Source: a virus. Taken from it: 64,000 nt of DNA. The notes under the pieces were generated by a model that saw only the letters and a list, made by a program, of their open reading frames with translations, did no database searches and was not told where the DNA came from. Shown here in pieces: positions 8,518-64,000 of the stretch (position 1 is its first letter; every line of letters starts with the position of its first letter). The stretch spans positions 1 through 64,000 of the IMG/VR virus record IMGVR_UViG_3300035670_000075, one strand, 5' to 3'. Made by a program: the position numbers and the translations under genes.

Positions 8518-9252
8518 TCATAACGATACTTGAAAACCTCGCCCACTCAAAACCTTCCAGCCTATCGATGCATTGATATACCTGAAAGTTCGTGTTGTAT
8601 AGGCTTTGTTTAACGTTAAGTCCTCAGCAAGCCCCATGATGTTGTTGCCATTCCTGGCAACGACGGTATTCAGGAAATTGCCGACGCCAATAACCACCTC
8701 GTCACCAACAGAAGGCGATGATGGCAGCGTTTGCGTAGTGCCATCAGCGGTCACTTCAACGTGCTCTGCCACGGCAGCATTTCGGCTTATTGCGGTGACA
8801 ACAACTGACTTTTGCATTTCAAACGTGACGCCTTCCAAACCGTCGCCACCTGAATTAACCCTGATAAACTGATCTCCTATAGCTGAGCCAGGCTGAAGAT
8901 TTGTCAGTTCTATAAAATACGGATCACCACCACTGAGTATCAGCGCATTAATCTGTGACAGGGTAACGTAATCCTGTCCAGCTACGGCATTTGCCGCATT
9001 AAACATCCGATTGCCGCCAGCAGAAAAATTTCCGCTTATTGCGCCGTACTCTAGCTTTGTTGGCACTTCCGGCGGCGTCAAAACAGGCGTGTTATCACGC
9101 CATGTCATCTGTTCGCCGCTAAGCCACGACATTTCAGAGCCAGCCAACACCTGCGCTTCGGCAGACCATAGCTCGGCAAATGCCGTGATCGCGTTGAGCG
9201 ACTCAACGCGGTCAGGTTGTCTTGCGTAAAAGTTGATACCTGACGCAGCCAA
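8518..9252 (-). CDS. tail fibre-like protein, paralog B
   Basis: Colinear similarity to 7843-8505. Confidence 0.65.
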   Translation of the reverse strand: MAASGINFYARQPDRVESLNAITAFAELWSAEAQVLAGSEMSWLSGEQMTWRDNTPVLTPPEVPTKLEYGAISGNFSAGGNRMFNAANAVAGQDYVTLSQINALILSGGDPYFIELTNLQPGSAIGDQFIRVNSGGDGLEGVTFEMQKSVVVTAISRNAAVAEHVEVTADGTTQTLPSSPSVGDEVVIGVGNFLNTVVARNGNNIMGLAEDLTLNKAYTTRTFRYINASIGWKVLSGRGFQVSL

Positions 9253-9254
9253 AC

Positions 9255-10091
9255 CTATGACTCCTCTAACTCGAAAGCAGTGGCGAAATTATTATAGAAT
9301 GTCGGCGTCATTGCTGACGCCTGCTGCACGTTTTTGCAGATAAACGTACCATCCCGGCGCAGTGAAGCGCCAGCATCCGGGTGCAGAGAAACCAAAATAT
9401 CTCTATATCCGCCGGTAGAGTAGAACATATCGAAAAATGTTGAGCGTTCTGTTGTGCTCAGATAGCGTAAATCAAACGCCGACTTCCTGAAGCGGATACC
9501 TCTGTTTGCTCTCAATCCACCGTCGTTCATGCGGATTTGGGTATCTGTATTGACCCAGCTAATCGGCAAATCACCCCATAACGGATTTTTTTCAGGTGTG
9601 ATGTAATTGCCGCTGATTAGCCGTCCGTAGTCAAGGTGTCCGTCTTCGTTATCAGGATCGGATACAAACACGTCAACCGTGTATACCCCGCTGATTACAG
9701 TATCCAGCCAAATCACCGAAAAAGGCTCCCCCCACCCGGTAAATATCGACGCGCCAAGCTCGTCAATACCCCAGTCAAGATCGCCTAGCGATTTTATCTC
9801 ATACGCGGATTGCAAACCGCTGGCGTATAACGTGTTATCAACACTATCCTTGGCTGTAACACTCCACGTCGCCGTGGTGCTCAGGTTATGGTAAAAAAGA
9901 CCGATGACAGACAATACAGATGGTTTTGCATAAGTTATTGTCATCGTGTGCTCAGTATCAAGCACGCGGCCTTTCGGGTTTCGCCCGTCGCGCTGCAAAT
10001 TTGTTATTGGCAGCGTCGAAACAAATGCAATATCGCTGCTTAGCGTGGCGGCGTCGCTCTCGTTTGACCTGACGATTCTAATATTACTCAT
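9255..10091 (-). CDS. distal tail/baseplate protein
   Basis: Position after TMP and hub; IGLFYHNLS and YGRLISG motifs of proteobacterial siphophage tail proteins. Confidence 0.6.
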   Translation of the reverse strand: MSNIRIVRSNESDAATLSSDIAFVSTLPITNLQRDGRNPKGRVLDTEHTMTITYAKPSVLSVIGLFYHNLSTTATWSVTAKDSVDNTLYASGLQSAYEIKSLGDLDWGIDELGASIFTGWGEPFSVIWLDTVISGVYTVDVFVSDPDNEDGHLDYGRLISGNYITPEKNPLWGDLPISWVNTDTQIRMNDGGLRANRGIRFRKSAFDLRYLSTTERSTFFDMFYSTGGYRDILVSLHPDAGASLRRDGTFICKNVQQASAMTPTFYNNFATAFELEES

Positions 10092-61001: not shown

Positions 61002-61622
61002 TTAGCCCCCCATCAGCAGGTTGTTTTTGGAGCGCACTTGCTGTGCGGATTTTTTGAACGCATCAGCATCCAAGCCCATTTGACGCGCGATGGTAGACTG
61101 CGCGATGGTCAAGCCGCTGTCTTCGTCGTATTCGTGGACGCCGCCGGTTTGAGAAGCTGCAAACGCACGCATCGGCGTACATGCCGCCAAATACTCTTTC
61201 AGTCCGTCGATGTTTTGCGCACCCATGCGCTTAGCCCAGGTGACTTCGGCTTGGCTGACCAGCTTGCCGCTGGCTTGAGCTTCGGCAATCAGGGATTCCA
61301 ACTCGCGGGCTTTCGCGTCGCGCTCTTGGGCTTCCAGTTTTTCCGTCAGCTTGGCGATGATTTCTTTCTGCTCCATCAGCACACTCTGATCGGGCAGAAC
61401 ATCATTACCTTTGGTAGTTGCGGCGGGGGCAGCAGTGGATTGTTTATCGGCAAGAATTGCCGCGATTTTTTCGTCTTGCGCTTTCAAGTTGGCTTGCATC
61501 GTTTCGATAGCGGAGGATGCTTTGGCGGACTTGGCGATCAGATTACCGACCGCCTCAGCCACCGCGTCATCGCCAGCATCTTCCGGCAGGCCAAGCGCAG
61601 TTTTCATTGCTTGATAGTCCAT
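61002..61622 (-). CDS. scaffolding protein from an in-frame internal start
   Basis: AGGAG RBS 7 nt before internal ATG (MDYQAMKTALGLP); C-terminus resembles Mu I/Z. Confidence 0.7.
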   Translation of the reverse strand: MDYQAMKTALGLPEDAGDDAVAEAVGNLIAKSAKASSAIETMQANLKAQDEKIAAILADKQSTAAPAATTKGNDVLPDQSVLMEQKEIIAKLTEKLEAQERDAKARELESLIAEAQASGKLVSQAEVTWAKRMGAQNIDGLKEYLAACTPMRAFAASQTGGVHEYDEDSGLTIAQSTIARQMGLDADAFKKSAQQVRSKNNLLMGG

Positions 61623-62471
61623 TGAATGACTCCTGTTTTGAGTTTGCTTGGATTGACTGGGTGATAACTCGCTGATCACGGATTCCAGGCTACCCAACCT
61701 GTCCGCCAGCCCTGCTTCAACAGCCTTGGCTCCCGTCAGGATGCCGCCGCCACCGAATCTATTAAGAACTGTGTCGATTGATACGCCACGGTTTCGCGCC
61801 ACATCACGCACGAACACATCGGCTAAATCGTCCACGTTTTGTTGAATTTGCGAGCGCCCGTCTTCCGTCGCCGGATCGGGGCGTTTATTCGGGGATTGCG
61901 ATGACACGATTTCGTGCTCAACAACGCCAAGCCCCTCTTTCATCTTCCGGCTGTCAACATAAGTAGCAACAACACCGATAGAACCCAGTTGCGCGGTTTT
62001 ATCAACCACGATGTCGCCCTTCTTGACTGCGCTGGACAGCCAGTACGCAGCACTTGCCGCCATGCCACCAACGTAGGCTATGATTCGCTTCTGCTTGGCG
62101 TAGGCGCGAATGTGGGACGCCAACTCGCTAATCCCGGTGACATGCCCGCCTGGGCTGTCAACCAATAACACGATGCCGTTGACTTCCGGGTTATCGACCG
62201 CAGCGGAGATGTCTTTTGCCAACACTTCGACCGACGTTGCGCCGCTGATTTCCGTCATTAAATTGGCTTTGGGGAAAATCGCGCCTTCAATTGGAATGAT
62301 TGCAACGCCATCCCGATAGGTGACAGTGCGTGTATATTGCAGCGGCTCGCCACCACGCATCAGAACTGAGTGGTACTCGTTCTCGCGCTGCGCAATCGTG
62401 CGAATCATCTCCAGCCATTCGGCTGTAATCAGCCACGGCGCGGAGTCGATGAGGTGAATTAACGGTTTCAT
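61002..62471 (-). CDS. S49-family capsid maturation protease fused to scaffold
   Basis: VDSPGG, MAASAAYWL, GSIGVV, FVRDVARNRG, GLADRLG; start at MKPLI is uncertain. Confidence 0.88.
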   Translation of the reverse strand: MKPLIHLIDSAPWLITAEWLEMIRTIAQRENEYHSVLMRGGEPLQYTRTVTYRDGVAIIPIEGAIFPKANLMTEISGATSVEVLAKDISAAVDNPEVNGIVLLVDSPGGHVTGISELASHIRAYAKQKRIIAYVGGMAASAAYWLSSAVKKGDIVVDKTAQLGSIGVVATYVDSRKMKEGLGVVEHEIVSSQSPNKRPDPATEDGRSQIQQNVDDLADVFVRDVARNRGVSIDTVLNRFGGGGILTGAKAVEAGLADRLGSLESVISELSPSQSKQTQNRSHSMDYQAMKTALGLPEDAGDDAVAEAVGNLIAKSAKASSAIETMQANLKAQDEKIAAILADKQSTAAPAATTKGNDVLPDQSVLMEQKEIIAKLTEKLEAQERDAKARELESLIAEAQASGKLVSQAEVTWAKRMGAQNIDGLKEYLAACTPMRAFAASQTGGVHEYDEDSGLTIAQSTIARQMGLDADAFKKSAQQVRSKNNLLMGG

Positions 62472-62567
62472 GTATCGGATAATAACCTGTTTATTTTTGC
62501 AAGTCATTGTTATAATGGTAAAAATAGCCTGCTAGGTAGCTATGTATAAACTATAGAGGATTATGCG

Positions 62568-62789
62568 ATGACAGATTTGCCAGTAAACGAAGATAAACCA
62601 GCGAAGCCAGTGACAGCAGAACAGCAGGTGGTGCAGCTTAATGTGCGCGTGCCGCTGCACATGAGAATAAAGCTGTCTGCGCTGTCAGAAATAAATGGCG
62701 TTGACATGCAGGAACTTGTGCAGCAGTGGATTGCAGAGAAGTTGATTGAAAGCGAGGACGAGGTGCGGAAGTTTTTAAGTTTTCGTTGA
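62568..62789 (+). CDS. ribbon-helix-helix-like DNA-binding protein
   Basis: VQLNVRVPLHMRIKL...MQELVQQWI; GAGGA RBS; TGTTATAAT at 62508-62516. Confidence 0.65.
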   Translation: MTDLPVNEDKPAKPVTAEQQVVQLNVRVPLHMRIKLSALSEINGVDMQELVQQWIAEKLIESEDEVRKFLSFR

Positions 62790-62867
62790 TTTTTGTTGTG
62801 TTTATTTGTGTTAACGTGTAAACTATTGCTACTTGTTGCTTGATACAAAAAACAGGAGTGATCTGAT

Positions 62868-63236
62868 ATGGCAATGAACAAAACAGAAAAAGCTAAAATG
62901 CAAGAGCTTGAAGAGCAGATTCAGATTGCGCTGGCGCTACGCTGGACGGAAAAAGTGCTGCCTGACGTGGAAAAGCCCGAATCGTTTTCAAATAAAATAG
63001 CGAGAGGCTTTCTTTTCAACGCTTATACAGGTCAAGTAGATGAGATGTGGTCAGAATCTATACGCCACGGATATGCTACATCGCCTCAGCGCGGCTCTCA
63101 GGGCGGCATCAGCATGTACAGCACAAGGCTGTTGGCGTTAAAAGCGCTGCGCCACGCGGTAGAAGTGCGCAGTGCTGAGGCTCTGCGCGGCATTGATAAG
63201 AGAATTGCTGCTGAGTTGGCAGCGGATAATAAGTAA
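62868..63236 (+). CDS. phage hypothetical protein
   Basis: AGGAG RBS; 122 aa. Confidence 0.75.
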   Translation: MAMNKTEKAKMQELEEQIQIALALRWTEKVLPDVEKPESFSNKIARGFLFNAYTGQVDEMWSESIRHGYATSPQRGSQGGISMYSTRLLALKALRHAVEVRSAEALRGIDKRIAAELAADNK

Positions 63237-63337
63237 AATATTTCTACTGGAGTCTAGGTTGCAATGGATACCATTCTTGTGTTGTGCATCTTTATTTGTG
63301 GAACGGTGTCGGCTGTACCGCTAAGTTAGGGGTTATT

Positions 63338-63520
63338 ATGAATGAGAAAGAGTTGCTTGAGATAATCAACGCATACAAAAACGATATTTTATCCAACGAT
63401 GGAGATAAAGCAGATCGTTTTTTAATGATGCTTGCAAAAGAAGTTGAACGTCAAACACGCCATAAAGCAGTGAAAATTGCTTACGATATGGCAGAGAAAA
63501 TTAGCGATCTGAACTCCTAA
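63338..63520 (+). CDS. hypothetical protein within a cassette-like unit
   Basis: AGGGG RBS; stop TAA lies inside CCTAAC. Confidence 0.65.
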   Translation: MNEKELLEIINAYKNDILSNDGDKADRFLMMLAKEVERQTRHKAVKIAYDMAEKISDLNS

Positions 63521-63614
63521 CGCCGAGCTAAGCCTACCGGTGCTGCCGGTCAACTTGAACCAAAACCGAAAAATCTCGGCGGCACCGGGTCGGCCTTGAG
63601 CGATAAGTTATGGC
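63515..63614 (-). mobile_element. integron attC-like recombination site
   Basis: Minus strand: GCCATAAC-TTATC-GCTCAAGG-CCGACCCGGTGCCGCCG...CGGCAGCACCGGTAG-GCTTAGC-TCGGC-GTTAGGA, i.e. R''-L''...L'-R' with the extra C in L''. Confidence 0.75.
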
Positions 63615-63807
63615 AGATATTACAATGTGCATCAATCAAGCATGTGATATGCGTGAAGACTGCTATAGAGCAAAAGCGACACCTGCTGTTTTCCAAAGTT
63701 TGTGTTTTTTTGCTCCGATAAACGGTAATTGCGAGAATTATATTGAGTATAAGCAGCACACTAAAAAAGCAAAAAATACTGGTATTTGTAGCCATAACGC
63801 TTTATAG
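63610..63807 (+). CDS. small Cys-rich phage protein within a cassette-like unit
   Basis: MADITMC....C.MREDCYR; ATG lies within GTTATGGC. Confidence 0.7.
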   Translation: MADITMCINQACDMREDCYRAKATPAVFQSLCFFAPINGNCENYIEYKQHTKKAKNTGICSHNAL

Positions 63808-63885
63808 CCAGAAAAACTTCCGCCATATTAGATAATAGCCATTAAATACGGAGACAATGAATATTTTTTAGCTTGGTATGAAGCG

Positions 63886-64000
63886 CTATGATTTACCTAC
63901 AACAACAAGCTCACTCCACGCAACCCAATCAGCATCAAACACCATTCCATTGCCATCAACAACACCGACCAACGCCGACGTATTGATATTATCAACATCC
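63886..64000 (-). CDS. 3' end of a gene running off the window
   Basis: Open frame ...DVDNINTSALVGVVDGNGMVFDADWVAWSELVVVGKS*. Confidence 0.4.
   Translation of the reverse strand, partial: DVDNINTSALVGVVDGNGMVFDADWVAWSELVVVGKS

Follow-up and report, generated by a model that had tools for sequence, protein, structure and literature searches.

We examined the first 64 kb of the phage record IMGVR_UViG_3300035670_000075 from IMG/VR (64,000 nucleotides, hereafter the window), in which an initial annotation had marked integron-type gene cassettes at 63.3-63.8 kb. The full record is linear and 105,387 bp long, with a CheckV completeness estimate of ~95%, and the positions given below are those of the record, with which the window shares its origin. 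Two short open reading frames (ORFs), one full attC site and one degenerate half-site lie close to the right end of the window. Taken together, these features very probably represent a pair of integron gene cassettes carried by a temperate-type phage that does not itself encode an integron integrase.

Gene content of the cassette locus

Cassette A (63521-63797, minus strand; 277 bp) comprises the attC site e1 (63508-63616, with a core at 63515-63614; minus strand) together with ORF A, and is bounded by the crossover points TAA|C at 63520/63521 and 63797/63798. The GTTATGGC that ends e1 (63607) is the reverse complement of the far boundary core of the cassette, GCCATAAC at 63791-63798, confirming the perfect 8/8 match proposed for this pair. 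ORF A (63610-63807, plus strand) encodes a Cys-rich small protein of 65 residues and of phage type, with its start ATG within the GTTATGG core and its last codons extending 10 nt beyond the cassette end. It matches phrog_20586 (E 4.6e-6), shares 44% identity with a hypothetical protein that Maribacter phage Panino encodes (E 2e-5), and has viral clusters as its nearest neighbors in the ESM Atlas. An antisense frame of 81 codons (63550-63795, minus strand) also spans the cassette, with its ATG in GTTATGG on the other strand and a hydrophobic N-terminus. This frame has no family match and a codon log-odds score of -14.5 bits (ORF A scores -0.4 bits), and is probably not a gene.

Cassette B (63237-63520, minus strand) consists of ORF B and its own decayed attC. 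Its right limit is the e1 crossover point and its left limit is uncertain. ORF B (63338-63520, plus strand) encodes a helical small protein of 60 residues, and is supported by codon usage (+27.3 bits log-odds on the codon usage of the phage) and by 14 full-length homologue clusters at 39-57% identity. Its Shine-Dalgarno sequence lies within GTTAGGGG and its stop codon TAA within the CCTAAC core of e1. A locus search for ORF B relatives, which aligned 5 of 15 family members, placed a 54%-identical homologue in another viral contig (L046) as an ordinary gene of a tightly packed operon, without an attC in its vicinity; phages thus carry this gene family, and it takes the form of a cassette only in some cases. 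The cassette B boundary had been described as a pairing of complementary cores at 63325 and 63515. As quoted, these cores match at only 6/7 positions, but extension by one base, to GTTAGGGG at 63325 and CTCCTAAC at 63514, gives complementarity at 7/8.

The half-site e0 (63308-63331, minus strand) corresponds to the R''-L'' half of a degenerate attC. It has the invariant 3' block of the attC family in our alignment of that family (A4), and its other half is missing or unrecognizable. We reject e0 as a full attC, since it scores 6.2 bits and the region forms no hairpin (z -0.61). The half attC of the initial annotation has this 3' block, but its score on its own is at chance level, and e0 counts only via position and the 7/8 match. 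Since cassette B keeps only half an attC, it is probably fixed in place. All the motifs quoted in the initial annotation occur where it had placed them (GTTAGGG at 63325-63331, TCCTAAC at 63515-63521, GTTATGGC at 63607-63614 and GCCATAAC at 63791-63798).

The attC family of e1

The element at 63508-63616 is a true attC site. It has the layout TCCTAAC-GCCGA-GCTAAGCC ... GGCCTTGAGC-GATAA-GTTATGG over ~100 nt, within the range of roughly 57-141 nt for attC sites, and forms a palindrome with R''/R' and L''/L' boxes. The core is bounded at 63515 by TCCTAAC, the complement of R', and at 63614 by the end of GTTATGGC, the complement of R''. Between these limits the palindrome is imperfect, and a 12-bp GC-rich inner stem pairs 63537-63548 with 63577-63588. 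As plus-strand RNA, e1 folds better than all 200 shuffled sequences (z -3.72).

A self-blast comparison provided a second copy of the element at 81.3 kb, and the 19-base core pattern common to this copy and e1 was used as the seed for a search of public collections. The pattern matched 2 viral contigs and 18 bacterial loci, and the full ~100-nt element is clearly homologous in 14 of the latter. The bacterial carriers are metagenome-assembled genomes (MAGs) of Thiotrichales, Thiomargarita and Chromatiales, a Beggiatoa-like MAG, and a cyanobacterium. The covariance model R1 was built from 17 copies, all from outside this phage genome and none from a mobile integron. Applied to the phage genome, R1 recovers seven full sites, all on the plus strand and scoring 44.6-91.6 bits, with the next match at 13.8 bits. 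The highest score is that of e1 (91.6 bits, E 3e-23), and in the reverse orientation the same site reaches only 8.4 bits. R1 also recognizes the 60-nt attC of aadA1 on plasmid R100 (37.8 bits, E 4e-9). The covariance-model check proposed for this site is thus strongly positive, and the full attC-like site suggested at 63515-63614 is borne out.

The pairing of the family is likewise conserved. Among 26 distinct copies 91.7% of cells pair, a share that drops to 27-53% once the partners are slid, and 10 of the 17 stem pairs show compensatory changes; TAAC and GTTA are invariant in 7/7 phage copies. In addition to strand asymmetry and homology to a proven attC, the family has relatives beside intI. 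One bacterial genome (G001) carries an intI at C11:77446-78375 (379.5 bits with TIGR02249, whose cut-off is 265) with a family copy 4.5 kb away (72841-72949), and this intI is directed away from the array in classical integron geometry. A second genome (G003) has an intI at a contig edge (288 bits). Tandem family copies, two each, occur in three bacterial loci (L022, L007 and L024) at spacings of 554-1074 bp. An Rfam scan of 62000-64000 at E <= 10 gave chance-level matches only and nothing attC-like, blastn of the element against plasmids and phages found nothing relevant, and patterns for the attC 5' half, for the e2/e5 stem type and for the palindrome described below had no match in viral contigs.

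The bacterial cassettes with the same attC family encode HamA (L020:251-793), a Thg1-like protein (L024:969-1742), a ParE-like toxin (L007:1078-1538) and the toxin BrnT (L017:5248-5753). This cargo fits chromosomal integrons as stores of defence and toxin-antitoxin genes.

Cassette ends and crossover points

At all seven phage sites, the right-end GTTAxxxx is the reverse complement of a ....TAAC sequence one gene further right, with matches of 8/8, 10/10, 9/9, 9/9, 9/10, 8/8 and 9/9, and differs from the complement of the left end of the same site. We read this shifted complementarity, which agrees with the cassette ends at G/TT put forward earlier, as the footprint of once-circular cassettes opened at G|TT. 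As expected for gene cassettes, the first bases are complementary to the R'' of the same cassette, at 8/8 positions in A, 7/8 in B and 8/8-10/10 in the six others. When the far boundary is joined in silico, 7/7 sites fold canonically, with an R box of 8-9 bp, an unpaired spacer, a bulged L box and a stem. The DNA folding energy is lower in 7/7 reconstituted sites, falling from -26.7 to -32.0 kcal/mol in e7 and from -18.3 to -23.3 kcal/mol in e1, which gains a paired 8-bp R box. A single, usually promoterless gene on the attC top strand, with attC after it, is typical of cassettes but not obligatory, and reverse-oriented cassettes occur in bacterial arrays. Cassettes A and B each hold a single gene (ORF A and ORF B, respectively), in both cases on the bottom-strand side.

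Polarity of the attC sites

The shifted complementarity is symmetric, so that orientation cannot be read from it, and the polarity is instead assigned from three other results. First, R1 is directional, distinguishing the two orientations of e1 as given above and those of a bacterial copy at 118.7 against 11.1 bits. Second, the strand of R100 matched by R1 is antisense to aadA1 (37.8 against 5.9 bits in the other orientation); the strand antisense to the gene is also the one printed as the bottom strand for attC_aadA7 in Table S3 of Qi, Rajabal, Ghaly, Tetu and Gillings (Front Microbiol 2023, PMC9892861). R1 matches the R100 attC_aadA1 in one polarity only, which fixes the window plus strand as the bottom strand, predicted to be the recombinogenic one. 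Third, the single-base bulges in the predicted folds of e4-e7 are on the 3' arm of the plus strand, as in attC_aadA1. These comparisons assign the attC top strand to the minus strand, as initially annotated, and identify the plus strand as the predicted foldable, recombinogenic bottom strand. Consistent with this assignment, the cassette genes in five bacterial loci are opposite to the model strand, including the Pfam-supported Thg1, HamA, ParE-like and BrnT genes, and a canonical acetyltransferase cassette in the phage genome, described below, confirms the polarity internally.

Further cassettes and recombinases in the same genome

The seven full sites fall at three loci, with e1 at 63508-63616 (91.6 bits), e2 at 81317-81424 (66.4 bits) and five sites at 84992-86554 (44.6-86.4 bits). 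The e2 locus is a single cassette (81317-81687) with an 81-residue plus-strand ORF and a 10/10 boundary (AAAGCCTAAC). The five sites have their bottom strand on the plus strand and a spacing of 272-408 nt, and form four inverted single-gene cassettes (95, 101, 89 and 51 residues) followed by the one canonical cassette, which carries a GNAT acetyltransferase gene (86629-87198, minus strand and hence top strand; 28% GC) that begins 12 nt past G|TTAGAGG. This array is a clear CALIN (a group of neighboring attC sites without an integron integrase). The nearly identical stems of e2 and e5 suggest a common source. A possible eighth attC, diverged, lies at 105245-105325, with a good 3' block (GTCGGACTGAAGCGCCAAGTTAGG) and a weak 5' half; it gives no R1 match at E <= 10, and is followed by a Shine-Dalgarno sequence and ATG.

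The genome contains exactly two copies (81694-81734 and 87218-87255) of a near-perfect palindrome of 45 nt, TAGGCAGAATGTT.AATAAC-T-GTTATT.AACATTCTGCCTA, and in both cases a terminal cassette boundary (CTAAC|TTGTA..) lies 7 nt to the left. The only mismatch between the arms is swapped from one copy to the other. We found no copy of this palindrome in IMG/VR or JGI metagenome contigs. It may be an attI-like platform, or a lox-like site of the adjoining Cre-like recombinase.

Two tyrosine recombinases are encoded at 87.7-90.1 kb: a Cre-like protein of 361 residues (87689-88774), and a convergent arm-type integrase (88919-90094). The gene for the former is directed away from the five-cassette array, an integron-like geometry, but the protein is not an IntI. 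Its best solved relatives are Cre and Tre, with no IntI chain at E <= 0.01 in the PDB. A 93%-identical homologue occurs on a 3.5-kb ENA contig, and a search of IMG/VR found no relative. IntI is absent from the phage genome: the best scores with TIGR02249 are 28-31 bits (cut-off 265), and those with NF011946 22-24 bits (cut-off 435). With both recombinases at 28-31 bits, the search for intI recommended in the initial annotation returned no IntI, and the insertion by a host or phage integron integrase that it proposed would most likely be the work of a host enzyme.

Phage context of the locus

The cassettes lie at the 3' end of a 1.3-kb rightward block of small genes (62568-63807). Two further genes of this block lie upstream of them (62568-63236, plus strand), encoding proteins of 73 residues and of 122 residues, the latter phrog_28248. 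The block is flanked by two leftward late genes, for a head-maturation protease (61002-62507) and a Mu-type portal protein (64275-65690), with the terminase located beyond the portal. Inside the block GC content drops from ~0.55 to 0.37-0.39, and the GC and AT (purine) skews reverse sign at 62.5-63.8 kb, consistent with plus-strand coding. GC skew gave no usable signal on replication direction, and promoter and terminator scans gave matches no more frequent than in shuffles.

To the right of the array is an AT-rich, non-coding junction (63799-63877) that might be an attG-like secondary target or a decayed platform. As suggested for the sequence beyond 63798, this flank is not attC-like by R1, and it forms no hairpin (z -0.52). 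Its sole weak resemblance to the 45-nt palindrome is that of a 9-nt TAGCCAGAA to TAGGCAGAA.

Searches for relatives of the phage found no close match. A megablast search with 62500-64000 as query gave no match among GenBank phages or E. coli genomes. The portal protein had no relative in IMG/VR, only a self-match in a set of 5.8 billion proteins, at most 34% identity across 401 genomes of the class of G001, and <=28% identity among the tblastn matches listed from GenBank phages; the head protease had no relative in JGI metagenomes. Elsewhere in the genome, the gene for the ribonucleotide reductase large subunit (72494-75142) contains an intein (Intein_splicing and Hint matches), and genes for a DNA polymerase III beta clamp and a C5 cytosine methylase lie near it.

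Inverted gene polarity in this and other phages

Of the eight cassette genes in the phage, seven are on the bottom-strand side, as judged by codon statistics, family matches or both, and each inverted gene begins just past the R'' end of its own attC. The initial description of ORFs antisense to attC holds for both cassettes of the window, with ORF A and ORF B on the plus strand and so on the bottom strand. The same mirror arrangement is seen in a viral contig (L006, IMGVR_UViG_3300020576_001076), where a 241-codon ORF has a short aadA-like attC on one side and a long attC of the family on the other (8987-9816); the ORF and both attC sites are on one strand, with a shifted end match of 7/7. 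In a further viral contig (L005), the flanking genes are likewise inverted relative to attC. The phages represented by these two contigs share only distant genes with the present phage (beta clamp, 41% identity; single-stranded DNA-binding protein, 28%).

We also placed published, experimentally tested bottom strands on the genomes of two phages. In Pseudoalteromonas phage H101 (NC_029094, 75-78 kb), every annotated gene that flanks PH101_attC2 has the bottom strand of this site as its coding strand, the same inverted polarity as in the present phage. Tetrasphaera phage TJE1 is canonical in its arrangement of gene and attC. From these comparisons the inversion recurs among phages, but is not universal.

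Origin and movement of the cassettes

An IntI-type integrase, most likely that of the host and supplied in trans, would bind the folded attC bottom strand (the plus strand) and cleave ..TAA|C after its last A (on the top strand, G|TT). Its partner in the ensuing strand exchange would be a further attC, an attI or some secondary site, and the product would be resolved by replication. In known integrons intI is SOS-induced. Given the lack of an IntI in the phage, a host IntI acting in trans is the best explanation, and fits both the published use of phage attC sites by IntI1 (PMC9892861) and the published insertion at non-att sites (bioRxiv 10.1101/2022.09.11.507474). The cassettes may still be mobile. 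Because the genes are on the bottom-strand side and start after R'', they would be read by the phage rightward transcript rather than from an integron promoter. Their products might, as a guess, serve accessory host-takeover or counter-defence functions. In integron terms the insertion is a very small one of the CALIN or SALIN type (SALIN, a lone attC site with no integron integrase). With no adjacent intI it is not a complete integron. A CALIN has at least two clustered attC sites and no intI; this locus has one full site and a non-significant half-site, which formally brings it nearer to a SALIN as defined by Loot et al. (bioRxiv 10.1101/2022.09.11.507474).

Several observations weigh against this interpretation. 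The phage gene polarity is the reverse of the norm for the attC family. As single-stranded DNA within the array, e1 folds only modestly better than shuffles (z -1.98 for the bottom strand and -0.95 for the top), and the second bulged base, in our own reading of the sequences, is C where T is usual. The half-site e0 is not significant alone, with ~3.6 matches equal to its 6.2 bits expected per shuffled genome. The flank at 63799-63877 is not recognizably attI-like and has no clear likeness to attI1 or the 45-nt palindrome. No presence/absence polymorphism at TAA|C can be demonstrated without a close phage relative in the collections searched. Crossover by IntI is deduced here from its footprint, and not from observed recombination, and an intI could lie in the ~5% of the genome estimated to be missing.

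The alternative that survives best, although we consider it improbable, is that the cassettes are passive cargo: a fragment of a bacterial array acquired by illegitimate or homologous recombination, in which no integrase ever acted in the phage. Such routes have been proposed for phage CALINs (Qi et al. 2023, PMC9892861), and the array indeed has half an attC at its left edge and borders on non-att sequence at its right. It is difficult to reconcile this origin with cassettes at three or four separate loci that all have one polarity, with terminal boundaries that are exact at TAA|C (8/8, 10/10 and 9/9), or with two arrays that end at the same 45-nt palindrome, which is otherwise absent from the genome. 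The genes are moreover of phage type and run opposite to those that accompany bacterial copies of this attC family, and the ORF B family is represented in another phage by an ordinary gene without attC.

Somewhat less probable still is that the cassettes were moved by a phage recombinase other than IntI, for which the Cre-like enzyme of 361 residues is the candidate. Its gene has an integron-like geometry, with the palindrome and a crossover point lying between it and the five-cassette array, and both copies of the palindrome, the only two in the genome, are 7 nt away from a terminal cassette boundary. The palindrome beside the Cre-like gene may nevertheless be that enzyme's own lox-like site. 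The enzyme itself is far below every IntI model, aligning with TIGR02249 over positions 245-297 only, and has Cre and Tre as its relatives, whereas the attC family is homologous to the sites of bona fide IntI. The locus at 63.3-63.8 kb, moreover, is 24 kb from the recombinase gene and has no palindrome. Finally, we can very nearly dismiss the idea that the elements are terminators or repeats of the REP (repetitive extragenic palindromic) or MITE (miniature inverted-repeat transposable element) kind with attC-like ends by chance, despite the strong plus-strand RNA fold (z -3.72), the lack of an Rfam family and the view, quoted in PMC9892861, that attC sites are weak terminators, because R1 cross-recognizes attC_aadA1, bacterial copies adjoin intI, the shifted complementarity spans whole genes at 7/7 sites, canonical folds appear only once the cassette ends are joined, and no T-run follows the stem on the plus strand.

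Implications of mirror-image cassettes

Returning to IntI-type insertion in trans, we tentatively suggest a wider picture, which we think rather doubtful as it stands: phages may keep a pool of their own of mirror-image cassettes, in which accessory phage genes are coded on the bottom strand of the attC, with docking at dedicated platforms and swapping via the SOS-induced IntI of the host. The proposed docking platform would be the duplicated 45-nt palindrome followed by TACAAG|TT. If so, mirror-image cassettes would be silent in a bacterial integron and expressed when read by phage operons, and accessory genes could be swapped through the host IntI within a single infection or induction. The bottom strand would also be the non-template strand, and might fold and recombine faster than in bacterial cassettes. 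Cassette excision in V. cholerae rises greatly when the attC bottom strands, which then fold more often, are on the lagging-strand template (PMC13108822), and the phage polarity may therefore have a direct mechanistic consequence. The coding bottom strand of the phage would have that location provided that its genes run in the direction of replication.

Integrons are known as devices with which bacteria capture genes, and parts of the recent literature report chromosomal ones as stores of anti-phage defence genes. Precise IntI-type cassettes with inverted phage-type genes would imply that phages may use the same host recombination machinery for gene shuffling. Recurrence lends support, given that the arrangement is found at at least three loci in one phage, in a second viral contig and in the cultured phage H101. 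Tools that assume co-orientation of gene and attC may label atypical phage arrays as 'typical'.

Comparison with known systems

The occurrence of attC sites, CALINs and integron parts in phage genomes was published in 2023 by Qi et al. (PMC9892861), who showed experimentally that phage attC sites are substrates of IntI1; the presence of cassettes in a phage is therefore not new. Their phage CALINs resemble the present cassettes in having clustered attC sites, single small genes, no integrase, an otherwise normal phage genome, and palindromes with inverted GTT boxes at the borders. That study terms the phage arrays typical of bacterial ones and is silent on gene polarity. The present genome differs from their description in having 7/8 genes on the bottom-strand side, three or four loci and a duplicated 45-nt terminal palindrome. 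We have not found the systematic mirror polarity, the spread over three to four loci or the shared terminal palindrome described in the published phage-integron reports that we read.

The attC sites of aadA1 and aadA7 in class 1 integrons (such as In2 of R100) have the same box layout as the phage sites, with near-identical boxes (CTAACGC.TGAG.TAAGCCG / GTCGGC.TTGA.CGA...GTTA). In attC_aadA1 as in the phage sites, the extra bases of the bottom strand are on its 3' arm, and both are recognized by R1. The phage sites are longer, at ~100 nt with a conserved loop of 30-35 nt compared with 60 nt for attC_aadA1. The aadA1 gene is on the top strand and is read from Pc beside intI1 and attI1. The phage, by contrast, has its genes on the opposite strand and no intI.

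Like the phage cassettes, those of the sedentary chromosomal integrons in Thiotrichales, Chromatiales and other MAGs are tandem, single-gene units with homologous attC sites (97-123 bits with R1), and at least one of these genomes has an intI nearby. In contrast to the phage, their genes are on the top strand and their cargo is defence- or toxin-antitoxin-like rather than phage-type small proteins.

Cassettes are also known to be inserted outside integrons at attG sites, giving rise to SALINs (Loot et al., bioRxiv 10.1101/2022.09.11.507474). As at the present locus, a SALIN comprises one or two cassettes at a non-att site with no integrase nearby; a neighboring promoter drives expression and the attC can decay. 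The SALIN work concerns canonical cassettes in bacterial chromosomes, whereas the cassettes described here lie in a phage late-gene region with inverted polarity.

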